Shown here: piece after piece, positions 1,922-62,858 of the stretch
Numbering within the stretch: the first letter of the stretch is position 1
Layout of the letters: each line of letters starts with the position of its first letter
Sequence record: PQ374922.1
Source of the DNA: a phage
Length of the DNA stretch: 64,000 nt
Reading direction: 5' to 3' (one strand)
Program-made: the position numbers and the translations under genes
Notes under the pieces: model-generated
Database searches by the model: none
Told to the model about the DNA's origin: nothing
Seen by the model: only the letters and a program-made list of their open reading frames with translations

Positions 1922-1969
1922 ATTTTAAATTTATTCAATAAACGGGGTTTAATTCTTCAATAAACCCCG

Positions 1970-3875: not shown

Positions 3876-4283
3876 TCAGTGCTCCCGCGCCGGAAGAACT
3901 CCCACTGGTTCGATGCCATCCAACAGCAGGGAGTTCACACCCACATTACTCAGTCTGATCAAGATCGTTCCCCCTGGGTTAACTTCAAAGATACTCATCC
4001 CATTTCCAACCGCGTCGTTGTTAACGAACACACCCTGAGTTGCGATTCGTACTGGTTTATCTGAGTCATTCATGATCTTGAACGTCACGATTATATCTGA
4101 TGTTGTATCCAGTCGCCCAACCATGTGTTGCTTCAGCTTGGCATGGAATGATGGATTAAAAGTGATAATGATGCTGTTATTCTGAGAGTAATAAATACTT
4201 GCTGATAGGTATGGAATCTTCCCTTCATCGCCATGCCGCAGGAGAGGAATTGTGGTCTTCCAGTATGGCTTGAGGGTGCTCAT
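3876..4283 (-). CDS. hypothetical protein (start uncertain)
   Basis: Only long ORF over 3876-4250; C-terminal part looks protein-like, N-terminal extension to 4691 is Arg/Leu/Ser-rich and likely antisense artefact; no convincing RBS. Confidence 0.3.
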   Translation of the reverse strand: MSTLKPYWKTTIPLLRHGDEGKIPYLSASIYYSQNNSIIITFNPSFHAKLKQHMVGRLDTTSDIIVTFKIMNDSDKPVRIATQGVFVNNDAVGNGMSIFEVNPGGTILIRLSNVGVNSLLLDGIEPVGVLPAREH

Positions 4284-8217: not shown

Positions 8218-8380
8218 ATATTACTCTCGTGTGTTGGTTAACATGACATACATATTATTTCGCGTGCATGTTTAGACCAAATAAATTATTTTTGTTGTTG
8301 AATAAAAACTGCTTTCTTGTTGAACAATGGCGTGGTATTATACGAGTTGTGAGCGTTAGCGAACAACGAGTATTTGTTTT

Positions 8381-8400
8381 ATGAGCGAAGCGAATAGGAT
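8381..8400. repeat. 20-mer atgagcgaagcgaataggat (copy 1), preceded by 12-mer tatttgttttat
   Basis: Exact reverse complement present at 53886-53905; 12-mer tatttgttttat also shared (8371-8382 and 53871-53882). Confidence 0.85.
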
Positions 8401-8408
8401 TAATAAAA

Positions 8409-8443
8409 GTTATTATCTTTAATAAGGTTATTATCTTTAATAA
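8409..8443. repeat. tandem direct repeat, 17-bp unit gttattatctttaataa x2
   Basis: Two identical 17-mers separated by 1 nt in the 360-bp intergenic region upstream of the clamp gene. Confidence 0.85.
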
Positions 8444-8449
8444 AGTCCA

Positions 8450-8470
8450 TAAATGCCGAAGGCATTTATT
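8450..8470. repeat. inverted repeat ataaatgcc-gaa-ggcatttat
   Basis: 9-bp perfect stem next to the tandem repeats. Confidence 0.7.
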
Positions 8471-8577
8471 AATAACGCGTAGCGCAATTTGCCACTTGTT
8501 CTATAAGCAAAACACAGCGATACTAGATTTCGTCAAACATGACTTGAACCACCACTATATTTTGAGGATACATACAA

Positions 8578-9246
8578 ATGCAAGAGATCACTCTCTCCGA
8601 ACGTACACTTCAGTTGCTGGCCAACTTTGAGACCATCAACCCATCTATCGTTCTGACACCGGGCAAGATGCTGCGCAGTATTAATGATTCTTCTACTGTG
8701 ATCGCCGTGGCGCAGATCGAAGAAGACTTCCCGTTTGAGTTCCCGATTCTGGACCTGACCAAACTTCTGGCCATCCAGCGCCTACCTTCCTTCAAAGGTG
8801 CCAAAGCCGAATTCCATCAGGACTACATCCTGTTGAAAGGTGAAAGTTCTCAGCTGCAATTCTGGCGTTCTGCTAAAGAACTCACGGTTGTCCCGGCTGA
8901 TACTATCGAACTGCCGTCTGTTGACTTTGAAGCGATCATCACTCCAGAGAAGATGAAAGAACTGACCCGCGCCTGTTCTACCCTCGGACATAAGACTGTG
9001 CGCCTGGTTGCTCAGGGTGGCAAAACTCGCCTGGTTGCAACCACCACTACCCTGGACAACTCCAACAACTACACTGTTGAGCTGGGTGAAACCGCGCTGC
9101 CGGACTTCGTAATGCCGCTGGATGTTGCCAACCTGAAAATGATCGAAGGCAACTACACTCTGCGTGCCTGTGCTGATCTACAGATGGTGAACTTCCAATC
9201 ATCCGACGCGACGATCAATTACTTCGTCGGCGCACAGATTGAGTAA
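8578..9246 (+). CDS. sliding clamp, T4 gp45-like
   Basis: 222 aa, E. coli-optimal codon usage, immediately upstream of clamp-loader ATPase; order 45-44-62-regA as in T4. Confidence 0.8.
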   Translation: MQEITLSERTLQLLANFETINPSIVLTPGKMLRSINDSSTVIAVAQIEEDFPFEFPILDLTKLLAIQRLPSFKGAKAEFHQDYILLKGESSQLQFWRSAKELTVVPADTIELPSVDFEAIITPEKMKELTRACSTLGHKTVRLVAQGGKTRLVATTTTLDNSNNYTVELGETALPDFVMPLDVANLKMIEGNYTLRACADLQMVNFQSSDATINYFVGAQIE

Positions 9247-9274
9247 TCAATCTCCAGCCTGATGCTATAATGTG

Positions 9275-9300
9275 TGGGCGGGGCGTTCCCCGCCTATTTG
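9275..9300 (+). terminator. hairpin plus T-rich tract after clamp gene, preceded by TATAAT
   Basis: gggcgggg-cgtt-ccccgcc then tatttg; TATAAT at 9265-9270. Confidence 0.45.
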
Positions 9301-9327
9301 AAATGATTCTTCTACACGAGGCTGAAA

Positions 9328-12127: not shown

Positions 12128-12149
12128 GATATACAGTTGTTCACTAAAC

Positions 12150-12177
12150 AACAGAGGCTATAATGGCCTCTGTTTTC
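12150..12177 (+). terminator. terminator hairpin with TATAAT in loop
   Basis: cagaggc-TATAATg-gcctctg followed by ttttcg. Confidence 0.55.
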
Positions 12178-13416: not shown

Positions 13417-13530
13417 AGATTCCCTTTACTTCGTTCTTCAATAACTCAATCCAGCGTATATTGACCTCACTTAAACGAAGCGCCCTGGCAAACGGGGCGC
13501 ACATTTGAACTGAAACAGGAAGATTACACC

Positions 13531-15549
13531 ATGTCAGATTTTAAGCCCTTCGCAGTAGCTGTCAACAATAACGTGCTGGCCATGTCAGCAACTGGTCTGT
13601 TCATGACCAACATCGATAAAGATGCTCTGTGGGATCTGTATCTGTCTTCTTTCCCTGCTGGCACTAACCCGCTTTATCGTGAGCGTACCGAGCACGACTG
13701 TACCTGCTGCAAACAATTCATCCGTAACATCGGCGGTGTAGTCACCATCGACTCCGATCTGAACGTGATCTCTATCTGGGATAACATTCAGCTGGGTAAC
13801 GAATACGACGTTGTCGCTGCGGCGCTGTCAGCATATGTTAAGCAGCACGCAATCGTCGACGTGTACTTCAACGACACCAAGAAAGTTGGTGTTGAATCGA
13901 ATCACGAAATGAAAGACGGTATTGTCCGCACCTACAACCACTTCCACACCGACCTGCTGGGCAGCTATGTTCTGCGGGCAGATACCATCGCTTCTAAGAA
14001 GGGTGAAATCCGCCAGGCGATTGAAGTGTTTGAGCGCGGCCTGCGTGAACTGTCTCTGGAATCGGCTGAAATCGTTCTGGAATTGATCGACCAGAATTCT
14101 CTGTATCGCGGTGAAGAGCACAAAGCGGCAGTGCAGGCGTTCGTGGTGAACAAGACCCTGTACGAACAAACTGCAGAAGAGAAACGCGCTCTGTGGGCTT
14201 GGCGCACTGGCTACCGTGCAAACGGTCATACCCCTCACGGCATTCGTAATACCGTGATTGGCTCTCTGCTGGTAGACCTCAATGAAGGCCGGGATCTGGA
14301 AACCGCCGTGAAGTCCTTTGAAGCCAAAGTCGCTCCGACGAACTACAAGCGCCCAACCGCGCTGGTCACGAAATCCATGATTGAAAACGCGCAGAAAGAA
14401 GTCGAAGCGCTGGGTCTGACTGATTCACTGGGTCGCCGTTATGCCGTGTATGACGATCTGACCATCAACAACGTTCTGTTCGCCGACCTAGCAGCTCAGA
14501 AGAAGATGGACCCGTTTGCTCAGCTGGCGTCTGAAGTGAAGACTCCGACCAAGTCCCTGGACAAGGTTGAAGAGATCACGATCGACGACTTCCTGACCAA
14601 CGTGTTGCCAAAGGCGCATTCCCTGGAAGTGCTGGTCGAAAACTCTCACATTGGCAACCTGATGTCCCTGATCGCTCCGGCCACCGCAGGCGCTCCTAAC
14701 CTGTTCAAGTGGAACAACGGCTTCAGCTGGTCGTACAATGGCGAAGTGGCCGACTCCATCAAAGAGCGCGTGAAGACCGCAGGCGGCAATGTCGACAGCT
14801 TCCTCCGTGTGTCACTGGCTTGGCATAACAACGACGACCTGGATCTGAGCCTGAACGATCCTCTTCACAACCACGTGTATTATCACAACCGTCGTTCGAC
14901 AACTGGCGCAACTCTAGACATCGACATGAACGGTATGGACGGCATTGATCCAAACCGCCGTCCGGTGGAGAACATCTTCTTCAGCGATGAACGCAAGCTG
15001 CGTGATGGTCTGTACGAGTTCTATGTCACTAACTTCAGCCAGCGTGAAACCTGTGATATGGGCTTCGAAATCGAAGTTGAATACAAAGGCCAGACCAAGC
15101 GTTTTTCGCATCCTGGCCTGAAGCACAAAGATCGCACTCTGGCTGTTGTGATTGATGTCCGCGCTGGACAAGTGGTAGACATCCGTTCTACCCTGAAAGA
15201 CGACGCTCGCTCTCAGGAAATCTGGGGCATCAAGACCTCCGTCTTCCAGAAGGTACAGCTGGTTCTGAACTCACCAAACCATTGGGACGGCGAGCAGACT
15301 GGCAACAAGCACGTGTTCTTCATCCTGGAAGGTTGTGCTAACCCTGTCGGCACCCGTGGTTTCTATAACGAATATCTGAAGCCGGAACTTGATAAACACC
15401 GCAAGGTTTTTGAAATGTTAGGTGGTAAGATTAAAGTACAGCCAAGCACTGAGCAGCTGTCCGGTCTGGGCTTCTCTACCACCCAACGCAACCACGTGTT
15501 CGTGAAGGTGAGCGGTTCGTTCAACCGCACTGTGAAAGTTGTGTTCTAA
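13531..15549 (+). CDS. hypothetical protein (672 aa), highly codon-optimised
   Basis: Long ORF with strongly E. coli-optimal codons; no Walker or polymerase motifs seen. Confidence 0.65.
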   Translation: MSDFKPFAVAVNNNVLAMSATGLFMTNIDKDALWDLYLSSFPAGTNPLYRERTEHDCTCCKQFIRNIGGVVTIDSDLNVISIWDNIQLGNEYDVVAAALSAYVKQHAIVDVYFNDTKKVGVESNHEMKDGIVRTYNHFHTDLLGSYVLRADTIASKKGEIRQAIEVFERGLRELSLESAEIVLELIDQNSLYRGEEHKAAVQAFVVNKTLYEQTAEEKRALWAWRTGYRANGHTPHGIRNTVIGSLLVDLNEGRDLETAVKSFEAKVAPTNYKRPTALVTKSMIENAQKEVEALGLTDSLGRRYAVYDDLTINNVLFADLAAQKKMDPFAQLASEVKTPTKSLDKVEEITIDDFLTNVLPKAHSLEVLVENSHIGNLMSLIAPATAGAPNLFKWNNGFSWSYNGEVADSIKERVKTAGGNVDSFLRVSLAWHNNDDLDLSLNDPLHNHVYYHNRRSTTGATLDIDMNGMDGIDPNRRPVENIFFSDERKLRDGLYEFYVTNFSQRETCDMGFEIEVEYKGQTKRFSHPGLKHKDRTLAVVIDVRAGQVVDIRSTLKDDARSQEIWGIKTSVFQKVQLVLNSPNHWDGEQTGNKHVFFILEGCANPVGTRGFYNEYLKPELDKHRKVFEMLGGKIKVQPSTEQLSGLGFSTTQRNHVFVKVSGSFNRTVKVVF

Positions 15550-16954: not shown

Positions 16955-17062
16955 GTTTGTCAAAACCTTTTCAATATCAATAACGTCCAGCGTAAATGCT
17001 GGGCGTTTCAATTTGTGCATCACAGTATAATACGGCTGTACAATACACCATGAGGCTACATT

Positions 17063-17917
17063 ATGTTTCGTTTGAAATTGAACGACCAAGATGTGTTCTA
17101 CAAACACTTCACCTTCCCAGGTGGTGAGGAACATATCAAGATTCAAAAGTCTGGTATCCCTATCGGCCACGTTCAGAACGTGGCGATTGATGCTCACATC
17201 AAATCATCGGCTGACTTCATTGAGCTGGCGCTTCTGGTAAACGCCGTTCGTGGTCTGGGTAACGTGGACCGTCTGACGACATTCCATGCGTATATCCCTT
17301 ACTTCCCGTATGCTCGCCAGGACCGCCATTGTGACTTCGGTGAGCCTCTGTCTGTGAAGTGGGCGGCTGAGTTCATCAATAGCATGAACTTTGACCGCGT
17401 GGCGATCAAAGATCCTCACAGCCATGTTGTGTCTTCTCTGATCAACAACGTCCATGTTGTCCCGCAAGATTACATCGTGCGTCAGTATCTGGGCTGGTTC
17501 ATCCGTGGGAACAACGCTGTGTTGGTAGCCCCTGACGGCGGCGCGGCTAAGAAGACCGAAGCCCTCAGTCTGTCGTTGGACGGTGTTCCTGTTGTCTACG
17601 GTCACAAGAACCGTGACACCAAGACTGGTGAGATCATTGGGGTGAGTATTACGAACCCTGAACTGATCAAAGACCGCTATCTGGTGGTGGTCGATGATAT
17701 CTGCGACGGTGGGCGCACGTTCGTTGAGTTAGGCAAAGAGCTTCAGAAGCACAAGCCTAAGCACATGACGCTCTTCGTTACCCATGGCATCTTCAGCAAA
17801 GGTCTCTCTGTTTTCGACGGGATCTATGATGCTGTGTATGCCGACACTGTCTGGTGGGAGAACATCACCGCCGACGGGCTTCCTTTCAAAACTGAAAATA
17901 CAGGACGTGTAAAATGA
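17063..17917 (+). CDS. ribose-phosphate pyrophosphokinase (PRPP synthetase) family; Prs or ADP-ribose pyrophosphokinase (Adps)-like
   Basis: IPYFPYARQDR and PRPP-binding VVVDDICDGGRTF motifs; 284 aa, shorter than cellular Prs. Confidence 0.85.
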   Translation: MFRLKLNDQDVFYKHFTFPGGEEHIKIQKSGIPIGHVQNVAIDAHIKSSADFIELALLVNAVRGLGNVDRLTTFHAYIPYFPYARQDRHCDFGEPLSVKWAAEFINSMNFDRVAIKDPHSHVVSSLINNVHVVPQDYIVRQYLGWFIRGNNAVLVAPDGGAAKKTEALSLSLDGVPVVYGHKNRDTKTGEIIGVSITNPELIKDRYLVVVDDICDGGRTFVELGKELQKHKPKHMTLFVTHGIFSKGLSVFDGIYDAVYADTVWWENITADGLPFKTENTGRVK

Positions 17918-19896: not shown

Positions 19897-22090
19897 ATCA
19901 TTAGAATTTAAGAATGCGGTTGCGACTGCTGCCCCGTCCAACCATGTAATCGTTGTAGACATTTCCGGCTCTATGTACCGTGCGCTCCCTGAAGTCCGCA
20001 AGCACCTGAAGGAGAACCTGCCATCCCTGGTGAAACCGGAAGACACTGTGAGTGTTCTATACTTCTCATCCAAAGGCGACTTTGGTACTGTGTTCGCTGG
20101 CCGTCAGATCAATGCAGCATCCGACCTGAGCGAAATCAACAATCTGATTGACCGCTTCCTGAAACCGTCTGGTTGCACTGGCTTTGTTGAGCCGTTGAAA
20201 CTGGCGATGGACACTGCTCGTGGCCTGAAGAAGCCTGGCTATGTCAACAACCTGGCGTTCATGACTGACGGGTATGACAACTGCTGGCGTACCAACGAAA
20301 TTCTACTGGTTGCTGAGACCCTGCCATTTGCTTTCGATAACATTACATTTATTGAATATGGCTGGTACTGTAACCGCGAACTGCTGGCGCAGATGGCCGA
20401 ACGCTCTGGTGCTACTCACGTGTTTGCCGAAGGTCAGACCGAATACCAGACCGAACTGGAAAACGTGCTGAAGTCATCAGTGCCGAAGGTGAAAGTTGAT
20501 GTCCCAGTCATCTACACCCATGCCATCTACGTCGAAAACGGTGTGGCAACAGTACTGGCGGTGCAGGACGATGACTCTCACCCGGTCGGCTATGTGAGCA
20601 TCCCTGAGAGCATCACCAAGCTGTGGGTTGTAAACCCTAACATGATCGACCAGCTTGATGCGCTGGCGGATATCCAGGCGGCATACGTGCTGGCGTTCTA
20701 CGGCGTACACATCATGGACGCGGACCTGGTGTGGGCTGCACTGAAGAAAACGGGTGACGTTCGCTTCATCAAACAGTACAGCAACTGCTTCACCAAGCAG
20801 GACTACTCCAACATCAAGAACGATCTGGTTCAGGCGATTGTTGACGACCAGCTGCGCGGCGTTGACGGTATTGACTATGACCTGGTTCCGGCTGAAGATG
20901 CGACCACCGTCGTTGATGTGCTGACGTACCTGGCTGAAGCTGGTGTGCCTGTTGCTACCAAGCATCCGATGTTCTCCTATAAGAGCATCGGGCGCGGTAC
21001 TGTGCAGAAAACCGACGACACCGAAGACAAGCTGGCAGAACAGATCGCGAATGCTCAGTCCAAAGAAGAGCGTAAAGCCCTGGCTCTCAAGCTGGCAGAA
21101 CACGAAGAGTGGAACCCGACGTTCGAACCTACCAACGACCTGGGTGTTGTGCCAATCAGCGATTTGGTCTATAACTCCGAGCGCCCGAACATCAGTGTGC
21201 GTACAATTCAACACGGTACTGTGGCTGTGCCTGAATTCGCACAGAAGAAGTTTGGCCTGCCTGAAGAACTGGACACTTTCCAGTGGCGCAACTACACCAT
21301 CGTCAAAGACGGCATCATCAACGTGAAGACTCTGCCGTTCAAGGCTGATATCGAAGTTGTACAGAAGCTGATCGAAATGGGCGTCCACGTGTTTGGTGGT
21401 CCGGAAGTGTTCATCCTGAACCTGGAAAGCGTACCACTGGTCAACCGCGCCATGGTCAAGAACATCAGTGCTGCTCAGTTCTTTGCGGATAATGTCCGTT
21501 TGGAAGCCCTGAAAGGCAAGCAGAAGGTGCTGAAGTTCTATCGAGACGCCCTGGTTGGTAAGGGTAACGCCAAAGGCCTGGCAGTACAGTACGGTGCTGA
21601 GGCGGCCGAGTTCCTGTCCTCCTACGGTATCCGCGATTACGGCTTCTCACCGAAGACTGAGACCAAAGAGTCTACCGACTTCTACATGAGCCGTGAGCTG
21701 AACGTTAAGATCGCCGGGGCGTCTTCACTACCGAGCATCGCGGCAGTACAGAAGAAGATCGCAGAGAATAAGAAACTCAATGCTGGTGACTTGTTTATCG
21801 CCAATGCTCTGAAAGAGTACGAAGCATTCGTGAAGTCTCCTATGATCACTGCCGTGCCTGAAGCCTTACAGAAACAGCTGATCGAAAACTGGATCGACGC
21901 TGCTGCCAAGGCGGCCATCACCGAAGTCCGTGCCCTGAACAAGACACTGTCTAAAGTGGTGTATGGTATCGTTGCTGGCCACGGCTGGTTCACCGACCTC
22001 GACCTGGAAGAGTCCACCATGGAAGTTGAAGTGGATGGCGTGAAGTACAAGGTCACTGCCGAACTGACAGAGAAAGAAATCAAAATCTAA
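19889..22090 (+). CDS. von Willebrand factor A (vWA) domain protein (733 aa)
   Basis: MIDAS motif VIVVDISGSM...FMTDGYDN near N-terminus; internal ATG 19889 chosen. Confidence 0.7.
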   Translation: MIESLEFKNAVATAAPSNHVIVVDISGSMYRALPEVRKHLKENLPSLVKPEDTVSVLYFSSKGDFGTVFAGRQINAASDLSEINNLIDRFLKPSGCTGFVEPLKLAMDTARGLKKPGYVNNLAFMTDGYDNCWRTNEILLVAETLPFAFDNITFIEYGWYCNRELLAQMAERSGATHVFAEGQTEYQTELENVLKSSVPKVKVDVPVIYTHAIYVENGVATVLAVQDDDSHPVGYVSIPESITKLWVVNPNMIDQLDALADIQAAYVLAFYGVHIMDADLVWAALKKTGDVRFIKQYSNCFTKQDYSNIKNDLVQAIVDDQLRGVDGIDYDLVPAEDATTVVDVLTYLAEAGVPVATKHPMFSYKSIGRGTVQKTDDTEDKLAEQIANAQSKEERKALALKLAEHEEWNPTFEPTNDLGVVPISDLVYNSERPNISVRTIQHGTVAVPEFAQKKFGLPEELDTFQWRNYTIVKDGIINVKTLPFKADIEVVQKLIEMGVHVFGGPEVFILNLESVPLVNRAMVKNISAAQFFADNVRLEALKGKQKVLKFYRDALVGKGNAKGLAVQYGAEAAEFLSSYGIRDYGFSPKTETKESTDFYMSRELNVKIAGASSLPSIAAVQKKIAENKKLNAGDLFIANALKEYEAFVKSPMITAVPEALQKQLIENWIDAAAKAAITEVRALNKTLSKVVYGIVAGHGWFTDLDLEESTMEVEVDGVKYKVTAELTEKEIKI

Positions 22091-22456: not shown

Positions 22457-22579
22457 CAGAAGCCCCCAACAAACGTTGGGGATTTTTACTTTTAGGGGTT
22501 TACTTCCTCTAAGGAATGTCCTATTATTCAATAACTGGCGAACGATGGCGTTCACCAGATTGAGATGAAGGATTACATT

Positions 22580-23064: not shown

Positions 23065-23079
23065 TTCTATAACTTTGGG

Positions 23080-23107
23080 CGGGGTATGATTACCCCGTCT
23101 ATTTGAA
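23080..23107 (+). terminator. hairpin plus T-rich tract
   Basis: cggggta-tgat-taccccg then tctatttg. Confidence 0.45.
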
Positions 23108-23123
23108 ACCAAGAGACTATATC

Positions 23124-23498
23124 ATGAAAAAGTTAATCCTCGCTGTTGCCCTGCTGGGCGCTTCCTTTGCTGCTGTTTCCGCCCCTCCTGTCATCACCGG
23201 AGTGTCTACCAACGGTGTTTATGCTTTCAAGGCGTATGGCCAAGACCTCGTTCTGTATAAGAACGGGAAGATGATTGAGCGCTGCGTATCAGACGACGTG
23301 AATCGTGGGATCGACAATCAGGGCAGCCCATACGTCCTGGACATCTATTCCTGCTCTAACGGGACGAAGTCCTTTGGCGTCAAGACCTTTGGCAACGTCG
23401 CCGACGGTGGCTGGGGCTTCATGTTCGAAACCCGCAACCACCACCCGGTCAAGACCATGCAAGAAGAGTTCTTGATCTCTGTCGGGGGTACGTTATGA
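23124..23498 (+). CDS. secreted protein with signal peptide (124 aa)
   Basis: N-terminus MKKLILAVALLGASFAAVSA; conserved ctatatcATG start context. Confidence 0.55.
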   Translation: MKKLILAVALLGASFAAVSAPPVITGVSTNGVYAFKAYGQDLVLYKNGKMIERCVSDDVNRGIDNQGSPYVLDIYSCSNGTKSFGVKTFGNVADGGWGFMFETRNHHPVKTMQEEFLISVGGTL

Positions 23499-24424: not shown

Positions 24425-24503
24425 ATACGATAGTTTATTGAATCCCTTTACTCATCATGGTGAGCCGCCTATCATTTCATCCAATGAAATAAGGAGAATC
24501 ACC

Positions 24504-25555: not shown

Positions 25556-26422
25556 ATGCTCCTGACCAAAACAATCGCTGCGGCGATTATCGAAAAGAAT
25601 AAGGCTTTTGCCCCCAACGCAGCCAAAGTTATGTTGGTACACGAAGACGCTCGCGTGATCTTCGCCGAGAAGTTCGAGATGGGCGCGAAGTTCTGGTATG
25701 CCGACAACTTGCGTGAGAGCAAACTTCAGGGTATCATCCACAAACTGACTCTGGTCGCCAAGCGTAATGACCAGGGTGACTGGGTCGGCGTTTCTGACTT
25801 CAGTACGAAGATCACCCCAAAGGCTCCGCTTTCTCGTCAAGAGCGCATTCTGGAAGCCCAGGAAAAGCTGCGTGCGGCTCGGAGTACCCCAAAGGCGAAA
25901 CCAGATGCAAGCCCTGTCATCAAGCCAGCGGTTGTTCCTAAGTCCAAATACCTCCCGCCCGTGAGTCAAAAGGCTGTGGAGCAATTGGTCGAGAAGCGCA
26001 AGGGTGACGTTGTGATGAAGTCTGACTCTTCAGTGGAGCCGTTCAAGCCGGATCCAGCAGAAGTACAGGCGCTGGCAGAAAAGGTAAAGAATTCACAATT
26101 CATTTCCTTGCGTGAACTTGAACCGCCTACTCGCCGTCGTGTCGCCAACGAGCTGTTTGTGTCGTTCAGGTCGGATGGCAAGATCGTCCTGTGCAAAGCC
26201 CTGCGCGATGCAATCCCTTGGACAACTCTGAACATGATGGTCACTCGCGACTTCAAGCGTTTTGGTATCATGCAAGGCAAGGACTACAACGTCAACCAGA
26301 GCGGGACTTATGTTAATCGCGCCATGTGTGACAAACTGACCTTCCCAGAAGATACCGGAACGATCCGTGTCGTTCTGAACTGGGACGACAAGCTGAACAT
26401 GTATGTTGGCGATTTCCAATAA
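25556..26422 (+). CDS. hypothetical protein (288 aa)
   Basis: AAGGA RBS; Lys/Pro-rich central linker. Confidence 0.55.
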   Translation: MLLTKTIAAAIIEKNKAFAPNAAKVMLVHEDARVIFAEKFEMGAKFWYADNLRESKLQGIIHKLTLVAKRNDQGDWVGVSDFSTKITPKAPLSRQERILEAQEKLRAARSTPKAKPDASPVIKPAVVPKSKYLPPVSQKAVEQLVEKRKGDVVMKSDSSVEPFKPDPAEVQALAEKVKNSQFISLRELEPPTRRRVANELFVSFRSDGKIVLCKALRDAIPWTTLNMMVTRDFKRFGIMQGKDYNVNQSGTYVNRAMCDKLTFPEDTGTIRVVLNWDDKLNMYVGDFQ

Positions 26423-26478
26423 TCAATAACCTCGGGCGGCTTATCATAAAGCTGCCCTTTCATTTGAGTGACTATATC

Positions 26479-26940
26479 ATGGAAAAACTTTATTCTATTA
26501 TCGTCGGTCCTGATCCTGACGGATTATTCTTCGCCCCGTTGTCTTATATTGCCCACGCCCGTATCGGTAGCCATTACGCATATTGCACACGTGGCCACGA
26601 CGGTTCCAATATCCTCCATTATAGCCGCCTGAACGATTTCCTGGCACTTCAACCAGAAGATGTTGTGTTGGCGCGTCGCGTGTTCATCGACTTCAACGCG
26701 ATGCACAACAACGAAATCGACGCTCGCTATCATGCCATGCGTTCTATGGAAGGGGGAGACTGCATTTATCGTATCGACCATTTTAGTGAGTTTACCCAAT
26801 CTATTGATTGGTTCGTTTCAGAAAAGACGTTGGGTGAAAGAATCGTCACAACTCCGTGGGCACATGCGGACAACTTCGTGTGTCTACCGATGCGTACAAA
26901 GAAGTCGACAATCTGTGCAACAAGTTCCGCATCTCGGTGA
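26479..26940 (+). CDS. hypothetical protein (153 aa)
   Basis: ATG in conserved gactatatcATG context. Confidence 0.5.
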   Translation: MEKLYSIIVGPDPDGLFFAPLSYIAHARIGSHYAYCTRGHDGSNILHYSRLNDFLALQPEDVVLARRVFIDFNAMHNNEIDARYHAMRSMEGGDCIYRIDHFSEFTQSIDWFVSEKTLGERIVTTPWAHADNFVCLPMRTKKSTICATSSASR

Positions 26941-27668: not shown

Positions 27669-27758
27669 TTCCGCTTTATTCAATAAAATTTGTTAGTTAA
27701 ACTGTAGTCCTCTTGTAGTGAACATGAAAGTAAACATTAACCCAACGGAGAAATCCAG

Positions 27759-28037
27759 ATGAATCGTACTGAATTTGTTGCCCACATTGCTTCGACCCAG
27801 AATATCACCAAAGGCGAAGCGGAGAAAGTAGTGGCATCCTTTATCGACGGTGTTAAAACTGCAGTTGCTGCAGGCGCATCTGTACAGCTGGTCGGCTTCG
27901 GTGCGTTCGAAGTGAAACACCAAGAAGCGCGTGAAGGCCGCAACCCTCTGAACGGCCAGACTATTCAGATCGCGGCGAAAAACGTTGTGAAATTCAAAGT
28001 GGGCGAAGGTCTGAAGAACGCTGCCAACGGCAAGTAA
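27759..28037 (+). CDS. HU/IHF family DNA-binding protein
   Basis: MNRTEFVAHIA...GFGAFEV...RNPLNGQTIQIAAKNVVKFKVG matches HU family; followed by strong terminator. Confidence 0.85.
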   Translation: MNRTEFVAHIASTQNITKGEAEKVVASFIDGVKTAVAAGASVQLVGFGAFEVKHQEAREGRNPLNGQTIQIAAKNVVKFKVGEGLKNAANGK

Positions 28038-28088
28038 TTCTATCTGACGCGCGGCCAGGCTCTGCAATCAGGGCATGGCAAAAGAGAA

Positions 28089-28118
28089 AGCCGGAGTACA
28101 ATGCTCCGGCTTTTTCGT
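28089..28118 (+). terminator. rho-independent terminator after HU gene
   Basis: agccggag-tacaatg-ctccggct followed by ttttt. Confidence 0.75.
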
Positions 28119-28165
28119 TCTTGGGGATCGGGTAAACTATAGGCGAATCCCATAGGAGGAAGAAA

Positions 28166-29884
28166 GTGACAGCATTCAACCAATATACCAAGGCGCTTGA
28201 CGGCGTCGGACCAGTCAGCATAGACCGCATCAAGTCTCTTGCCACTGAGTTCTTCCCGTATGACACCGCCAACCCCGGCCAGATGGAATGCATCGTTGAA
28301 GCCATTGATGCCCTTGTGAATAAGAAATTCAAACACGTGATCATCGAGGCTCCGACTGGTGTGGGTAAATCCCTCATCGGCACTACCATCCATAACGTGC
28401 TTCGCCATTTGGTTCTTGAGCACAACCCGTATGGTCAGTTCCGCACGTCTATCACGACGCCGACCAAAGGTTTACAGGATCAGTATGCAGCAGAGAAAGC
28501 CGTGACGATAGACATCCTGAAGGGCAAGAAGAACTACCGTTGCCACATCAGTCCCGACCTATACTACAACGCCATTCAGTGCCGTATGGCATGCCGTGAT
28601 GGCCACTGTAGTAAGAATCGTTGCCCATATGTTCAGGCGCGTAGACAGTGGACCGACGTCTCCTCCCTGCGCTGCACCAACGCCGCCATGATGGTGGAGA
28701 TGTGTACGACGATTTGTATGAAGCCGGAAAACCGTGCCGATATGCTGATCCTTGACGAGTGTCATAAGATGCCCTCTACGCTCCTAGAGCATACTATCAT
28801 GGAATACAACATAAAGGCTGTGGAAGGGTTGCTTACGATCCCCGAGGGAGTGCCTATCGTGGAGACCATCAAGGATATCATCATCCGCACAGATAACTAT
28901 GAATTGGGCAAGCTGTATTCCCTGTCTGGTGAGATGCATGCGATATTTGATGAACTGCACGGCAAGGTTGAAGCCCTGTTGGAAACTCTTGAGGAACTGG
29001 TAGAGGACGAGCGCCTGACTGAAGCCCAGGTGATGAAGCTGTCTGATATTATTGATACTCTTCACAACCTCAGCGACTACTGTGGTATCATGGGGCAGAC
29101 CAACGCCAGCACTTTCATCGTACAGGAGAAGGACAAGGGTATGATTCAGTTCAAGCCTGTCATCGCCTCTGATGTATCCCAGTTCGGCCTGTTCCGCAAG
29201 GGTGACTACCACGTTCACATGTCGGCTACCATTTGCGGGATTGACTCGTACGCCCGGTCACTGGGTATCCGCGAGGGTGAGTACCACAAGATACAGATCG
29301 GCAACCCTATCCCGATTGAGAACCGGAAAGTCAACTACATGCCCATCATGAAGATGACAGCGAACATGGGTGACTACGAGATGAAGAAGCTGGCTGAATA
29401 CGTGGATGAAATTATCGCGTTCCACCCTGGGCAGTCTGGCATCATTCACACAGTCAGTTATGACCGCGCCCTGGCTCTACAAAAGTTCAGTAAGTACCGG
29501 AATATGATTCACGTTCCTCGTACTCGTAAGGCTCTGATGGACATCATGGAACACGCGTTCAGGACGAAGACACCTTGTGTCATCGCCAGTCCGTCCATGG
29601 AAGAGGGGTATGACTTCAAAGGCGATTATAGTCGATTTCAGATCTTGATCAAGGTGCCATATGATTACCTTGGTGATCCTCTGGTGGCCCACGTCAACAG
29701 TGTGGACCCATCGGCGTACTTCAGGATGGCGGTACTGCGTATCGTTCAGATGTGTGGGCGTTCGGTCAGGGGCGTGAATGACTGGGCTGCGACGTACATC
29801 CTTGATTCTTCTTTTGAATCACTGATGATGCGCAACCCAGAGTTCTTCCCCGCTTGGTTCACTGATGCCGTGTTTGAGGTTTAG
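28166..29884 (+). CDS. DinG/XPD-like Fe-S cluster SF2 DNA helicase
   Basis: GTG start after AGGAGGA; Walker A EAPTGVGKS, DECH box ILDECHKM, four-Cys cluster between them. Confidence 0.7.
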   Translation: MTAFNQYTKALDGVGPVSIDRIKSLATEFFPYDTANPGQMECIVEAIDALVNKKFKHVIIEAPTGVGKSLIGTTIHNVLRHLVLEHNPYGQFRTSITTPTKGLQDQYAAEKAVTIDILKGKKNYRCHISPDLYYNAIQCRMACRDGHCSKNRCPYVQARRQWTDVSSLRCTNAAMMVEMCTTICMKPENRADMLILDECHKMPSTLLEHTIMEYNIKAVEGLLTIPEGVPIVETIKDIIIRTDNYELGKLYSLSGEMHAIFDELHGKVEALLETLEELVEDERLTEAQVMKLSDIIDTLHNLSDYCGIMGQTNASTFIVQEKDKGMIQFKPVIASDVSQFGLFRKGDYHVHMSATICGIDSYARSLGIREGEYHKIQIGNPIPIENRKVNYMPIMKMTANMGDYEMKKLAEYVDEIIAFHPGQSGIIHTVSYDRALALQKFSKYRNMIHVPRTRKALMDIMEHAFRTKTPCVIASPSMEEGYDFKGDYSRFQILIKVPYDYLGDPLVAHVNSVDPSAYFRMAVLRIVQMCGRSVRGVNDWAATYILDSSFESLMMRNPEFFPAWFTDAVFEV

Positions 29885-30648: not shown

Positions 30649-30693
30649 AGTTTCATTCCTCTTTCTATAAAACCAGTTTGGGATATTTATATC

Positions 30694-36227: not shown

Positions 36228-36261
36228 AAGGGCACTAAATACCACGTGCCCTTTATCTTTT
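36228..36261 (+). terminator. terminator hairpin with late-promoter-like TAAATAC in loop
   Basis: aagggcac-TAAATACCAC-gtgccctt followed by tatctttt. Confidence 0.6.
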
Positions 36262-37571: not shown

Positions 37572-37624
37572 AAATAATTCAATAAAAGGGGCTTTCGCCC
37601 CTTTACTTCTTCAATATCCTTCCC

Positions 37625-37645
37625 TATACTTCATTCCATAAGCAG
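37625..37645 (+). repeat. exact 21-mer tatacttcattccataagcag (copy 2)
   Basis: Identical to 1970-1990. Confidence 0.8.
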
Positions 37646-37678
37646 TACGACACCAACTTGAATAGCAGGAACTATATC

Positions 37679-38014
37679 ATGACACAACTCAAGAACTTCA
37701 CCGCCGATGACATGTTTGCCTTCCAGGGTGCTGAGCACTTTGCTGACGGCTCTGTACCTCGCATCTACTACTTCTCCGACGAAGAGATGGAAGCGTTCTT
37801 CGACCTGATGGAAAAGGACTACGAATCGAGCGACTTCGTTTATATCATCCATCACGCTGAAGGACTGACCTTGGGTTGGACGGCCAACAACGAACCAGAA
37901 GAAGTAAACTTCCCTGAAGGTATCATGTCAGAGCGCGTCGAATATCTACTGGAAGCCCTGGACCCCCACACCCTCCCGCTCTGGGCGATGTCTGTAGCCC
38001 AAGTTCAAAAATAA
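37679..38014 (+). CDS. hypothetical acidic protein (111 aa)
   Basis: Conserved ctatatcATG start context. Confidence 0.5.
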   Translation: MTQLKNFTADDMFAFQGAEHFADGSVPRIYYFSDEEMEAFFDLMEKDYESSDFVYIIHHAEGLTLGWTANNEPEEVNFPEGIMSERVEYLLEALDPHTLPLWAMSVAQVQK

Positions 38015-41388: not shown

Positions 41389-41428
41389 GTGAAACCATCA
41401 AGATGACCCTGGTCAAGCCGTGATTACA

Positions 41429-41460
41429 ATCCCCCTAAATACAGGGGGATTTCTTTTTCT
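41429..41460 (+). terminator. terminator hairpin with TAAATACA loop
   Basis: atccccc-TAAATACA-gggggat followed by ttctttttct. Confidence 0.65.
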
Positions 41461-44409: not shown

Positions 44410-44606
44410 AACTTTTTACTTCACATCACTTCCCTCTAGGCCTCATTCGACGAGGCCTTTTAAAATACTTCAAAAATAATTTTTTAAAAATTATTGAAAA
44501 AGACTTTACTCTTCAATAATGATGCACTATTATAGTTCACATAGGGCGGCAACACACCGCCGAATGAAAAGTGAAATGAACCAACTACATTATGAGGAAT
44601 TACATC

Positions 44607-45095: not shown

Positions 45096-45244
45096 TCCAG
45101 ACGTATAACATAGGGGAGGCAACTCCCCCTATCAGGTCTTGGGAGGAGATCACAGTCATTCAATCCTCTTTAGGCGCTCTCTGGGTTGCTGACACATTCA
45201 GAACAAAGTCTCCCCCAGCTCCTCGAGTAGTTCACTTTCACTTT

Positions 45245-45275
45245 AAATACCTCTGCATTCATTGTGGAGGTATTT
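45245..45275 (+). promoter_or_regulatory. hairpin pairing TAAATACCTC with the endolysin Shine-Dalgarno region
   Basis: aaatacctc (45245-45253) is reverse complement of gaggtattt (45267-45275), 5 nt before the endolysin ATG. Confidence 0.45.
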
Positions 45276-45279
45276 TCTT

Positions 45280-47019: not shown

Positions 47020-47102
47020 GTAACTCGCCAACCCTCCCCGCCGCCTTCAATCTACGAGGGCGGCGTATAATAAAACCTGCGTAAACAAACCCGAGGAACA
47101 CC

Positions 47103-50800: not shown

Positions 50801-50833
50801 AAGCCCCTCATTGAGGGGCTTTACTTCTATAAT
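50801..50833 (+). terminator. hairpin followed by TATAAT (terminator-promoter unit)
   Basis: aagcccctc-att-gaggggctt then tacttcTATAAT. Confidence 0.45.
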
Positions 50834-50898
50834 CCCTGCGCTTATACTTCCCAGTAATTCATTGGCATTCGCCACAAATTGAAAGCGGGAACTATATC

Positions 50899-51360
50899 AT
50901 GACAAACAAAGTACTCACCAACCCACTGCACAACTTCGGTTACATTCAACTCCCTCTGGTGATCGACACCCTGTACGCCGACGACAAAGAAGAGATCTGC
51001 TGGTCACCCACCGCACTGATTGAACGCGAAATCTTCAAGTCTGTTGTTGATGTCATGTTCCGTATCGGTCGCAATGGACCTCTGGTCTACCTCGGCAAGG
51101 TGACTGAGTTGAAGACAAGCCACAACGAACGCTTCCTTCGTATCGATACAACGGGGTGCTCTCATCAGGACTTCAACACATTGCGCAATTATGTTCTGGT
51201 CAACCGCCCGGTCAGTCAACACCGCCCGTATCTGACTTCAATGCACATCGACAATTTCATCACCGACGTACACCTCCGCGCCGAAACCCTCCATGAAGAG
51301 GAAACAGGCCGAGCTATCGACACAGTCTTAAATATGGTTGTGATCACCCTGGCGGAGTAG
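50899..51360 (+). CDS. hypothetical protein (153 aa)
   Basis: Conserved gaactatatcATG start context. Confidence 0.5.
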   Translation: MTNKVLTNPLHNFGYIQLPLVIDTLYADDKEEICWSPTALIEREIFKSVVDVMFRIGRNGPLVYLGKVTELKTSHNERFLRIDTTGCSHQDFNTLRNYVLVNRPVSQHRPYLTSMHIDNFITDVHLRAETLHEEETGRAIDTVLNMVVITLAE

Positions 51361-53777: not shown

Positions 53778-53811
53778 ATTGAATTCCGGTTGTCAAACAA
53801 GGATTTGAAGG

Positions 53812-53819
53812 TATTTATG
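53812..53819 (-). promoter_or_regulatory. late-promoter-like CATAAATA upstream of gp5-like gene
   Basis: 7/8 match to TATAAATA on minus strand, 35-42 nt upstream of ATG at 53777. Confidence 0.4.
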
Positions 53820-53885
53820 CGCAGCTGTTTTTGCCTTATATACTATAGGAAGCTCTGCTTCCGTTCATTTTATTTGTTTTATTCG

Positions 53886-53905
53886 ATCCTATTCGCTTCG
53901 CTCAT
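53886..53905. repeat. 20-mer copy 2 (inverted orientation)
   Basis: atcctattcgcttcgctcat is the reverse complement of 8381-8400. Confidence 0.85.
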
Positions 53906-54112
53906 CAAACCGCCCTATGCGGGCAGCACCATTCCAATGCCATGGAGGCATAAGGGCGAGGCAATAACTGTACACCCCAGAACACTCCTTGAAAAATGGT
54001 ATTTTACTGACAATCTGATTCAAAACAGACAAACACCAACAAATGACTCGGGAACAAGCCCATTATAGCAATTTCAGGTAAAGAGAGTGCGTGTTAACCG
54101 ATTTTACAGTTA

Positions 54113-54141
54113 AGCCAATAAAAATCCCGCCGAAGCGGGAT
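54113..54141 (-). terminator. rho-independent terminator for minus-strand gene 54290-55096
   Basis: atcccgc-cgaa-gcgggat with A-run on + strand (T-run on - strand). Confidence 0.6.
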
Positions 54142-57569: not shown

Positions 57570-57809
57570 ATGAGCAAAGAATCAATTTACAGCGCAATGA
57601 AAGCCTCCGAGTTCCTTCCTGGCTCTATGCGCTGGCGTGTGGGTAGCCTCAACGAGCATGCCGACCAGACGGATCGTATTCGTTACGTTACCCCTGATGG
57701 TCGCTCATACGTCGTTGAGTATCACACGCACGACGAAGGCAAGAAGACGTTTTCGGACGTGTTCGACATTATTGAAATTGACCCAGCAAATCAAGTGCTT
57801 AAAGGTTAA
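57570..57809 (+). CDS. hypothetical protein (79 aa)
   Basis: ORF followed by hairpin. Confidence 0.5.
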   Translation: MSKESIYSAMKASEFLPGSMRWRVGSLNEHADQTDRIRYVTPDGRSYVVEYHTHDEGKKTFSDVFDIIEIDPANQVLKG

Positions 57810-57821
57810 TTCAATGTAAGA

Positions 57822-57848
57822 TCGGGGTATAATTACCCCGCTTTGTAG
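57822..57848 (+). terminator. hairpin with TATAAT spanning the loop, upstream of SSB gene
   Basis: cggggta-taat-taccccg then ctttgtag. Confidence 0.5.
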
Positions 57849-58965: not shown

Positions 58966-59902
58966 CCATCACGTCTTGCAATATTCCCAACAGGCTTGTC
59001 TTCTCCGCCGCCGTCAGGTTATCGTTACCCATGATGTCACGAGAGATACCTACCGAGATGCGCTCGAAGTCCTGTATGCTTATCCCAGCCAGGTTGTTTA
59101 CAAGTTGGTCAAGCTGTTTGTAAGCCAGGAGAGCCTCTCCTGTGAAGTTCCCTTCTTTCAACTTGCGATAAAGCTGTCCAGCTTTTGAGGCCGCAGTTTC
59201 CCAGTCACCACTGGTAAGAGCGTCAGCAATGCCGAGAGGAAGAAAATCGCTGGAAAGGCTGCGTGTTTCATATTCTGTCTCCGAAAGCACTTTGTTGTAA
59301 GAGAAAGAAATGTTGTACTGGTTGAACTGGTCTGTGGCACCTTTATCTAGCTCAATAGAACTGAAATTTATTGGGTGAGCCTCGACGATGTAGACGCGGT
59401 GGACCACTTGATCTTCGGTGTCAAGCTGTTCAATGCATATGTCAGTCACGAAGTCTTCGTAATATCCCATTTTGGTGGTGTGTGGATCAAAGATCAGACT
59501 CTTCCACTTGTCCATCACAGACTTCTCATAATAGTCATTGGCTAATAAGAATGACAAGTCGAGGTCGACGTTGGACTTGTTGTTCGGCATCTTGATGTGA
59601 TTACCGTTGTTTGTCATTGGAGTGGTGTCGATACCAACCCCTGGCAATGAGGCAACCATACACATCATCTGAAGGGAACGGGACGTCTGGTTTGTCCCTC
59701 CAAAGAAAGCGTTTACAATACGGGCTGACTGCTTAAACAAGTCACCAAAAGATGAATTGGTTCTGTACGCCTTTCCGTCATTAGCCAGAGTGGCATTGGA
59801 GTCAAAGATCCCTGGTGGTAGAGGGATGGTCACTCTGAAGCGGTTCTTGCGCGACAAGCCCCGCTGTAATATCTGTGTGATAAAATTGCGATAGTCTTCC
59901 AC
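58958..59902 (-). CDS. putative virion structural protein (late gene)
   Basis: GTG start with GGAG RBS; exact TATAAATA 35-42 nt upstream on minus strand. Confidence 0.55.
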   Translation of the reverse strand: MEDYRNFITQILQRGLSRKNRFRVTIPLPPGIFDSNATLANDGKAYRTNSSFGDLFKQSARIVNAFFGGTNQTSRSLQMMCMVASLPGVGIDTTPMTNNGNHIKMPNNKSNVDLDLSFLLANDYYEKSVMDKWKSLIFDPHTTKMGYYEDFVTDICIEQLDTEDQVVHRVYIVEAHPINFSSIELDKGATDQFNQYNISFSYNKVLSETEYETRSLSSDFLPLGIADALTSGDWETAASKAGQLYRKLKEGNFTGEALLAYKQLDQLVNNLAGISIQDFERISVGISRDIMGNDNLTAAEKTSLLGILQDVMGK

Positions 59903-59936
59903 GGTGAGGACTCCACTTAAATAAAATAACTGTTAT

Positions 59937-59944
59937 TATTTATA
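59937..59944 (-). promoter_or_regulatory. T4-type late promoter core TATAAATA
   Basis: Exact TATAAATA on minus strand 35-42 nt upstream of structural-gene GTG start at 59902; phage encodes gp55-like sigma. Confidence 0.5.
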
Positions 59945-59955
59945 GGAGTTGACAA

Positions 59956-60660: not shown

Positions 60661-60722
60661 TTCTATAACCCGTTCCGAGGGATAATTCGTGAACAGGTAA
60701 TCCTAAATGATGAGGCTATAAC

Positions 60723-61768: not shown

Positions 61769-61860
61769 CGTAGAAAGTTAATATTCACGCAAGTTCGCGC
61801 TCCGCTTGGTCGCGCACCTTATAACACTAAGGTGTTAACTTTCTTTTCAATAAAAAGTAG

Positions 61861-61889
61861 TTTACATCTATGAAAATGCAGTATATTAT
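61861..61889 (+). promoter_or_regulatory. sigma70-like early promoter TTTACA-N17-TATTAT
   Basis: Near-consensus hexamers with 17-nt spacer, AT-rich upstream including TTCAATAA, ~70 nt before gene 61958. Confidence 0.5.
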
Positions 61890-62824: not shown

Positions 62825-62858
62825 AGGGGCTGCTATAATAGCAGCTCCTTTTGTTTAT
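62825..62858 (+). terminator. terminator hairpin with TATAAT in loop
   Basis: ggggctgcta-taat-agcagctcc followed by ttttgtttatt. Confidence 0.55.

Follow-up and report, generated by a model that had tools for sequence, protein, structure and literature searches.

What does the octamer TTCAATAA, found at positions 1934-1941 of sequence record PQ374922.1 and again in other intergenic regions, contribute to the phage that carries it? The stretch analysed here, referred to as the window, comprises 64,000 nucleotides, and the considerations below indicate that the octamer is very probably a promoter element operating at the level of DNA, and that its ten exact copies on the plus strand do not form one class but occupy at least three positional registers. 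The window belongs to an Ackermannviridae phage (ViI/Ag3-like myoviruses), in line with the preliminary description of the sequence, which had correctly guessed phage DNA: in megablast comparisons with Escherichia phage YX22 (OR776998.1; Ackermannviridae, Aglimvirinae), identity amounts to 100% within the first 8 kb and to 98.7% across 36-46 kb, and the window also matches hundreds of Salmonella, Klebsiella, Escherichia and Dickeya relatives. The gene map was obtained by projecting the coding sequence (CDS) calls of YX22 with BLAST, by which 58,674 bp are coding and 5,326 bp, or 8.3% of the window, are intergenic, with nearly all genes residing on the plus strand; whole-genome counts refer to the assembled YX22 genome, of which 8.6% is non-coding.

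In the window, TTCAATAA occurs 14 times (10 copies on the plus and four on the minus strand) versus 2.26 expected, a number reached by none of 100 dinucleotide shuffles, and it is the commonest intergenic 8-mer. All ten plus-strand copies (675, 936, 1934, 1956, 13437, 22527, 27679, 37578, 44512 and 61846) are wholly intergenic and precede a plus-strand gene, just as the preliminary description had claimed for at least ten exact copies, whose positions are correct save for one that was given as 13436. On the minus strand, the copies at 24435 and 44491 are intergenic, and those at 20349-20356 and 57769-57776 lie antisense inside coding regions, devoid of promoter context, and are probably fortuitous. 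With 12 of the 14 copies located between genes, the octamer is not equally frequent in coding DNA. Because intergenic DNA is more AT-rich, shuffling was also confined to the intergenic segments, and the enrichment that the preliminary description had proposed to examine persisted: 2,000 such shuffles gave 0.24 expected plus-strand copies and never more than three, versus the 10 observed. In YX22, 22 of 30 copies reside in the non-coding fraction, and 18 of those 22 are oriented like the downstream gene. These figures bear on the possibility that an AT-rich word is merely frequent in AT-rich intergenic DNA. The base composition of the window (a GC content of 42.5% between versus 49.9% within genes) speaks for such an accident, but the intergenic shuffles, the strand bias, the spacing and the conservation across genera described below reduce its probability to practically nil, and it was rejected since the shuffle and spacing results already refute it.

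Part of the answer is already contained in the literature. The sequence TTCAAT[N14]TATAAT is quoted as a hallmark of the Ackermannviridae (formerly 'Viunalikevirus'), together with a late motif, CTAAATAcCcc, and in its strict form it occurs five times in phage EspM4VN (Thanh et al. 2020, PMC7283392). As TTCAATAA-N12-TATAAT equals TTCAAT-N14-TATAAT, the octamer is the 5' box, that is, the upstream half, of the published motif, with which it shares sequence, phage family and an intergenic place upstream of genes. Hence, the motif as such is a rediscovery of a known family hallmark. The window contains TTCWAT-N14-TANNNT eight times on the plus and once on the minus strand versus 0.71 expected on both strands, and the spacing histogram peaks at N14. 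The published geometry is found at the exact octamers 675, 936 and 13437 as well as at the variant-box sites 23065 and 47046, only loosely at 27679, and not at 1934, 1956, 22527, 37578, 44512 and 61846; in other words, the published form fits just three to four of the ten exact octamers. Likewise, the TATAAT-like hexamer that the preliminary description had placed 13-16 nt further on is present at three of the ten (four with the N13 spacing at 27679), measured from the end of TTCAAT, and absent from the rest. Moreover, the published form comprises neither an AA extension nor box variants such as TTCTATAA and ATCAATAA, a spacer tolerance of N12-15, -10 hexamers in hairpin loops, or octamers that TTTACT-N17 promoters carry at -45, -23 and +1. 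Both motifs reportedly originate from the 'Viunalikevirus' genus proposal of Adriaenssens and colleagues in Arch Virol in 2012, which is said to label them sigma70-like and late. As a separate observation, the late motif CTAAATAC occurs five times in the window versus about one expected (36235-36242, 41435-41442, 3112, 6309 and, on the minus strand, 52758), does not overlap the octamers and resides in a hairpin loop at 41428-41451 and 36230-36250.

What, then, distinguishes the sites in which the box and a -10 hexamer are combined? A profile built from 12 clean box/-10 sites in YX22, in which TTCAAT is invariant by construction, has AA next to it in nine of the 12 and a -10 hexamer of the form TATNAT with T, A and T essentially invariant, preceded by G-rich and followed by C-rich DNA. 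The box is situated at about -32 to -25, centred at about -28.5, and 12 nt (range 10-13) separate the end of the octamer from the -10. Upstream of the box nothing is conserved, including the three nucleotides directly before it, and there is neither a -35 hexamer at 16-18 bp nor an UP element. A two-block model joining box and -10 through a spacer of 10-13 nt after the octamer retrieves 12 sites on the plus and one on the minus strand of the window versus about 0.17 per strand in shuffled sequence; five of the sites are identical to training sites, and those at 17007, 41827, 56638, 57810 and 60661 are independent. In seven of the 12 two-block sites the -10 ends 29-36 nt before a start codon. 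The exact octamers of this class are just 675, 936, 13437 and, loosely, 27679, joined by about eight further sites with box variants (TTCTATAA at 8499, 23065 and 60661; ATCAATAA at 26422; TTCACTAA at 12140; TTCAATNN at 17007, 47046 and 57810). Taken together, the strand and intergenic bias, the sharp spacing peak to the -10, the tight distance from -10 to ATG and the conservation across genera bear out the association with promoters that the preliminary description had proposed.

The excellent sigma70-type -10 hexamers of these sites raise the question whether the host sigma70 holoenzyme reads the box directly, either with TTCAAT as an unusual -35 (three of six matches to TTGACA, 14-bp spacer) or with nnTTCA at 16 bp, in what would be ordinary early promoters. 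In favour of this main rival, the motif is quoted as a family regulatory motif, no recognisable phage activator emerged from the MotA/AsiA search and the ten promoter-adjacent genes discussed below, and the site at 936 passes a generic sigma70 scanner with nine of 12 matches. Yet a 14-bp spacer is outside the 16-18 bp of sigma70, according to established knowledge and to the scanner's own definition, and the 16-bp register matches just the C and A of TTGACA, with the two bases before the box not conserved; nor is there a compensating TGn, and the parallel existence of a proper TTTACT-N17 class argues for two modes of recognition. Direct reading by sigma70 is therefore considered unlikely. The -35 identity which the preliminary description had suggested was rejected in its canonical form: the best TTGACA register leaves the 14-bp spacer, nothing is conserved before the box, and among the box/-10 sites the scanner flags 936 alone, in a shifted register (TTTTCA-16-TATTAT) and at the minimum score. 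An extended -10 was rejected as well, a T at -15 being present in one of 12 sites, with a GGG-rich region instead of TGn. Overall, the scanner reports promoter-like sites in numbers of 20 versus 20.8 and 23 versus 20.6 expected in two segments of the window, and of 31 versus 22.3 in the third.

The remaining octamers are largely accounted for by a second promoter class. The scanner flags TTTACT/TTTACA-N17-TATNNT at 22499, 24447, 37602, 44505, 50820 and 61861, apart from the box/-10 sites, and hence two promoter geometries exist side by side in this genome. YX22 contains 10 intergenic promoters of the form TTTACW-N16-17-TAnnnT, eight of which carry octamers: seven copies lie at -59 to -37 in either orientation, three at -28 to -19 within the spacer and one at -7 to 0. 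Where two boxes are present, their distance across six genomes and 20 pairs is 20-23 bp in 11 and 32 bp in four, equivalent to two and three helical turns, although many of these pairs are orthologous and about four to six independent architectures underlie the statistics; almost always, the pair brackets the TTTACT hexamer. As to the UP-type element considered in the preliminary description, the idea fits by position 1934, 61846 and, inverted, 24435 and 44491, which occupy about -48 to -41 at TTTACW-N17 promoters, and none of the others.

How well are these arrangements preserved in related phages? Loci were fetched around four genes and named mostly by BLAST, namely LIMEstone1 as a putative assignment (L007, L020, L036 and L063), Klebsiella phage Menlow (L010, L033 and L050), Salmonella phage barely, a Kuttervirus (L040), Serratia phage phiMAM1 (L055), Erwinia phage Bue1 (L054) and Aeromonas phage phiA8-29 (L057). 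Box, spacing and -10 are kept while the flanks diverge in Agtrevirus, Limestonevirus, Kuttervirus, Taipeivirus-like, Serratia and Erwinia phages, and conservation at orthologous sites is seen in LIMEstone1-type, Menlow-type, Kuttervirus, phiMAM1 and Bue1 loci. The best footprint is that of 13437, where L009 and L011, at about 72% identity, retain TTCAATAA, the 12-nt spacer length and TATATT, while neither the upstream gene nor the spacer sequence is the same; the sites at 8499, 12140, 23065 and 47046 follow the same pattern with box variants. Upstream of the ribonucleotide reductase gene, the site at 47046 is conserved in Menlow-type loci and reads TTCAAT-N15-TATAAT in phiMAM1. Within the second class, the double-octamer region 1930-2000 is almost invariant across genera, the relatives having TTTACT where the window has TTTAAT, and the region 44491-44533 is conserved in Limestonevirus, Kuttervirus and Menlow-type loci, with eight varying nucleotides after the octamer. 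The same two-box arrangement as at 44491-44533 recurs in the Erwinia (L054) and Serratia (L055) phage loci, and in Bue1 and phiMAM1 octamers lie outside open reading frames (ORFs), in both orientations, around TTTAC hexamers. No intergenic octamers were found in phiA8-29 and two other distant loci (L057-L059; 40-46% primase identity; about 21 kb each), nor any intergenic enrichment in the distant loci L013-L015 (about 21 kb each examined).

By what means could a box at this position act? A -10 hexamer alone is normally insufficient for the sigma70 RNA polymerase, and since, in addition, the register of the box does not suit sigma region 4, a separate protein may bind the box and take over the -35 contact; the box would then be functionally analogous to the MotA box of T4, a proposal to which we assign even chances and which agrees with the phage transcription-factor site considered in the preliminary description. 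The protein, probably encoded by the phage, would sit on the box between about -32 and -25, separated by 12 nt from the sigma70-type -10 downstream, and substitute for the -35, and the promoters so activated would drive genes of replication and nucleotide metabolism; the genes downstream of box/-10 sites include those for the sliding clamp and the large subunit of ribonucleotide reductase. The probably early TTTACT-N17-TATNNT promoters carry this octamer as well, in either orientation where it lies at about -45, and also at about -23 and, in one case, over the start site; paired boxes flank the -35 at a distance of two or three helical turns, an arrangement which suggests that the same protein may modulate the sigma70-type promoters too.

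The copies far upstream invite a further comparison, as the seven YX22 copies at -59 to -37 of sigma70-type promoters, present in either orientation, fall into the zone of UP elements. They could thus represent an AT-rich site for a host protein, be it an UP-like element bound by alpha-CTD or a target of IHF, HU, Fis or H-NS, with an auxiliary stimulatory or architectural role, and the genera that bear the box all infect Enterobacterales, which share these proteins; moreover, there is a loose similarity between the box and the core ATCAA of the IHF consensus, with variants reading ATCAATAA. However, the fit to UP elements is one of position: the box contains no A-tract, unlike UP subsites, and most copies are located at -32 to -19, typically at -28 or -23, where alpha-CTD is, to our knowledge, not known to act. 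An IHF site (WATCAANNNNTTR consensus) was rejected, given that none of 30 octamers has the TTR in register, and the exact conservation of all eight positions is much tighter than usual for sites of nucleoid proteins. A host-protein site is accordingly regarded as quite improbable.

Several points weigh against a dedicated box-binding protein and the promoter function that it would serve. Neither phmmer nor blastp revealed homologues of T4 MotA and AsiA (NC_000866) when YX22 and the window were searched as 3,922 six-frame segments, the best E value being 0.15, in a search at the sequence level that fold-level analogues could escape; likewise, the ViI-like phages were described as devoid of MotA, AsiA, Alt and ModA (Kutter et al. 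2011). In the ten genes directly behind sigma70-type promoters, Pfam and PHROGs revealed no transcription-factor domains save in an HU/IHF-family protein. This protein of 92 amino acids (27759-28037; Pfam PF00216, E = 6e-30) is preceded by the 13-bp palindrome TTTATTCAATAAA and labelled 'transcription factor 1' in YX22, but it is nearer to generic HU/IHF than to SPO1 TF1, and the label is thus no evidence of a specific regulator; the sole DNA-binding protein found is a generic member of its family. The hypermodified thymidines of these phages could alter the rules of recognition, and the label sigma70-like, which the genus proposal reportedly gave to the motif, implies direct recognition by the host polymerase. 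Furthermore, only three to four of the ten exact copies have the -30 geometry, the box-pair statistics shrink to the few independent architectures mentioned above, the use of several registers could reflect several unrelated constraints instead, and the literature on the family yielded no transcript 5' ends, RNA sequencing or in vitro transcription.

If both promoter classes were read by the same factor, a more far-reaching scheme could be envisaged. A single phage protein other than a MotA/AsiA homologue might serve as an early-to-middle switch that, from about -28.5, takes the place of the -35 contact and activates the -10-only promoters of replication and nucleotide-metabolism genes, and that shuts down or retunes the TTTACT-N17 promoters, through two phased boxes (21-22 or 32 bp apart, in either orientation) bracketing the -35 or through one box over the start site. 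This scheme is speculative, and we hold it to be doubtful. The switch might also be affected by the hypermodified thymidines with which the T-rich box is filled.

A further feature of the box/-10 promoters is their overlap with hairpins. Strong hairpins are present at 1934, 12140, 23065, 26422 and 37578, and TATNAT hexamers resembling a -10 occupy the loops of GC-rich, terminator-like hairpins with T-rich tails at 947-972, 12150-12174, 23077-23101, 26434-26457, 57823-57840 and about 62826-62848, of which those at 12150-12174, 26434-26457 and 57823-57840 are called terminators by the scanner. In about half of the box/-10 promoters, the -10 is situated in the loop of the terminator hairpin of the upstream gene. 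Across YX22, a GC stem encloses 10 of 59 sense-strand intergenic TATNAT hexamers versus 3.2% of control positions (p = 1.5e-5), and nine of these 10 are preceded at 12-16 nt by a TTCAAT-like box and followed, past the stem, by a T-rich tail; in two of three window segments, 30-31 terminator-like hairpins were found versus about 18 expected. The simplest reading of this overlap is compaction, in which the terminator of the upstream gene would overlap the promoter of the next. Transcripts starting about 7 nt after the -10 would lack the 5' stem arm and would therefore be predicted to escape termination.

The proximity of octamers and hairpins could also indicate a signal at the level of RNA, with UUCAAUAA just 5' of terminator hairpins serving as an element of processing, stability or termination efficiency. 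The preliminary description had noted octamers preceding a hairpin, and at 936, 1934, 22527 and 37578 the copies indeed abut the 5' foot of a GC hairpin, in intergenic regions rich in terminator-like structures. In contrast, the well-conserved sites at 13437, 27679 and 61846 have no hairpin, and for this reason the hairpin is not obligatory and was rejected as a necessary part of the element. In addition, the fixed distance runs from the box to the -10 hexamer rather than to the stem, both orientations occur upstream of -35 hexamers, and Rfam gave no family match, with zero hits at the gathering threshold over the whole window. An RNA signal is thus very unlikely to explain the octamer.

Among known systems, the middle promoters of phage T4 provide the closest parallel to the box/-10 promoters. 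In T4, a MotA box centred at -30, up to 13 bp upstream of the -10, replaces the -35 during MotA/AsiA sigma appropriation; the box reads (a/t)(a/t)(a/t)TGCTTtA, and roughly half of these middle promoters contain a TGn (Hinton 2010, PMC2988021). Both systems share the geometry of a phage-specific box that is centred near -30, precedes a sigma70-type -10 by about 12 bp and takes the place of the -35, as well as the setting of replication and nucleotide-metabolism genes in a T4-related genome. They differ in that the window box TTCAATAA is unrelated in sequence and lacks the GCTT core, in that the phage has no MotA/AsiA homologue and its promoters no TGn, and in that the octamer is also used in other registers and both orientations. 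The early promoters of T4, composed of UP, -35, TGn and -10 elements with a -35 of 'GTTTAC', are similar to the TTTACT-N17-TATNNT promoters with their AT-rich upstream DNA, and octamers at -50 to -40 share the zone of Escherichia coli UP elements; here, however, no A/T tract but a specific 8-mer, in one orientation or the other, forms the upstream element, and a second, helically phased copy lies in the spacer. Another analogy concerns protein p4 of phage phi29, which has sites near early and late promoters and acts as repressor and activator (PMC3100819). The two are alike in concept, repeated sites around the -35 switching early promoters off and later ones on in a multi-register, phased layout, but phage, site sequence and polymerase contacts are unrelated, the protein is postulated here, and the analogy is purely architectural.

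What the present analysis adds to the published motif is a testable map of box/-10 promoters with MotA-box-like geometry and of two-box TTTACT-N17 promoters, with predicted start coordinates and the absence of MotA/AsiA. The use of the octamer in several registers, helically phased box pairs around the -35, a MotA-box-like geometry without MotA/AsiA and -10 hexamers in terminator loops were not found in the accessible literature, and in a 2024 review of the family the words promoter, transcription and sigma are all absent. According to Kutter et al. (2011), the early and middle promoter control of ViI-like phages was unidentified and not solvable by informatics. Should the one-factor switch prove true, it would constitute a second, independently evolved solution parallel to the sigma appropriation of T4. 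Since biocontrol and therapy directed at E. coli, Salmonella, Klebsiella and Dickeya make wide use of these phages, knowledge of their promoters would aid engineering and the understanding of host takeover.

The individual box/-10 candidates, all on the plus strand, illustrate the variation within the class. At 675-700, TTCAATAA-N12-TATCAT ends 29 nt before the ATG at 730, and at 936-961, TTCAATAA-N12-TATTAT, conserved in L006 and L012, has its -10 in the loop of a CGGGG...CCCCG hairpin, ending likewise 29 nt before the ATG at 991. The third exact candidate, TTCAATAA-N12-TATATT at 13437-13462, is free of a hairpin and belongs to the gene at 13531. Among the candidates with variant boxes, TTCTATAA-N12-GATACT (8499-8524) precedes the sliding-clamp gene at 8578, and L011 has the box TTCTATAT there, with a spacer of the same length and a different sequence. 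The -10 of TTCACTAA-N11-TATAAT (12140-12164; TTCAATAT in relatives) is situated in the loop of the terminator-like hairpin 12150-12174, that of TTCTATAA-N12-TATGAT (23065-23090; gene 23124; (A)TCAATAA-N11-TATGAT in relatives) in a hairpin loop, that of ATCAATAA-N12-TATCAT (26422-26447; gene 26479) in the loop of the terminator-like hairpin 26434-26457 and that of TTCAATGT-N10-TATAAT (57810-57833) in the loop of hairpin 57823-57840. A different arrangement is seen at 47046-47071, upstream of the ribonucleotide reductase large-subunit gene (47103), where the box of TTCAATCT-N12-TATAAT lies in a hairpin loop and the -10 after the stem. The preceding gene still covers, with its 3' end, the candidate TTCAAT-N13-TATAAT at 17007-17031, which 31 nt separate from the ATG at 17063, and TTCTATAA-N12-GATAAT at 60661-60686 precedes the gene at 60723. 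Two near-copies listed in the preliminary description fall into the same regions: that at 26415 is the site at 26422 just mentioned, and that at 16970 reads TTCAATATCAATAA inside the 3' end of a gene, the site at 17007-17031 being the cleaner one nearby. Upstream of the HU/IHF-family gene, 10 nt separate the 13-bp palindrome TTTATTCAATAAA from a downstream TAAACT, and 11 nt separate the octamer from that hexamer (27675-27703). The copies of TTCTATAA at 30663 and 50825 are regarded as probably incidental because they are not conserved in other genera; the former, which is also too close to an ATG, was dropped as a promoter, and the latter was rejected as a functional box.

The candidates of the sigma70 type are likewise located on the plus strand. 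In the two-box region 1930-1975, TTTATTCAATAAA with the octamer at 1934 (about -48 to -41) is followed by an ACGGGG stem, the -35 TTTAAT, the octamer at 1956 (about -26 to -19), a CCCCGT stem and TATACT, the boxes being 22 bp apart. In the region 37578-37630, a paralogue of 1930-1996, the octamer (about -59 to -52) precedes a terminator hairpin, after which come TTTACT, TTCAATAT at 37610 (TTCAATAA in relatives), N7 and TATACT, the boxes at 37578 and 37610 being 32 bp apart. The second two-box promoter (44491-44533) consists of an inverted octamer at 44491 (about -49 to -42), TTTACT, the octamer at 44512 (about -28 to -21), 21 bp from the first, N8 and TATTAT. Single copies occur in three promoters: over the -10 end and start site (octamer 22527, about -7 to 0) of TTTACT-N17-TATTAT at 22499-22534, with a hairpin thereafter; inverted, as TTATTGAA at 24435 (about -47 to -40), at TTTACT-N17-TATCAT in 24435-24475; and at about -50 to -43 of TTTACA-N17-TATTAT in 61846-61889. 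At 50820-50848, TTTACT-N17-TATACT has the TTCTATAA variant at 50825 overlapping its -35. The segments 1970-1996 and 37625-37651 are paralogous promoter-plus-leader regions with the common sequence TATACT-TCATTCCATAAGCAG(Y)AC(R)ACAC, and the near-invariance of 1930-2000 at an overall identity of about 72% suggests a conserved 5' leader or possibly a small RNA.

Some further observations concern the window at large. Of the genes of YX22, one of 657 bp, situated between those for clamp and clamp loader, is missing here (window 9247-9327), as are two small genes that form a block downstream of 45095 (45096-45279); both cases look like the presence or absence of mobile or accessory genes. Long stretches of 245-406 nt without an annotated gene are found at 3876-4281, 28038-28282, 53778-54140 and 59669-59955; the first overlaps a 271-aa ORF on the minus strand and the second an upstream extension of the next ORF, so that the annotation as deposited may have gaps at these two places. 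Upstream of the sliding-clamp gene, a non-coding gap of 360 nt between divergent genes (8218-8577) contains AT-rich runs and two tandem copies of an 18-nt direct repeat, AAAGTTATTATCTTTAAT, at 8406-8441, and could be regulatory or origin-like. Finally, ACTATATC stands directly 5' of ATG start codons, for instance at 23115-23126, 26470-26481, 37670-37681 and 50890-50901; with five copies on the plus strand, none on the minus strand and four of the copies intergenic, it is a conserved translation-initiation context.

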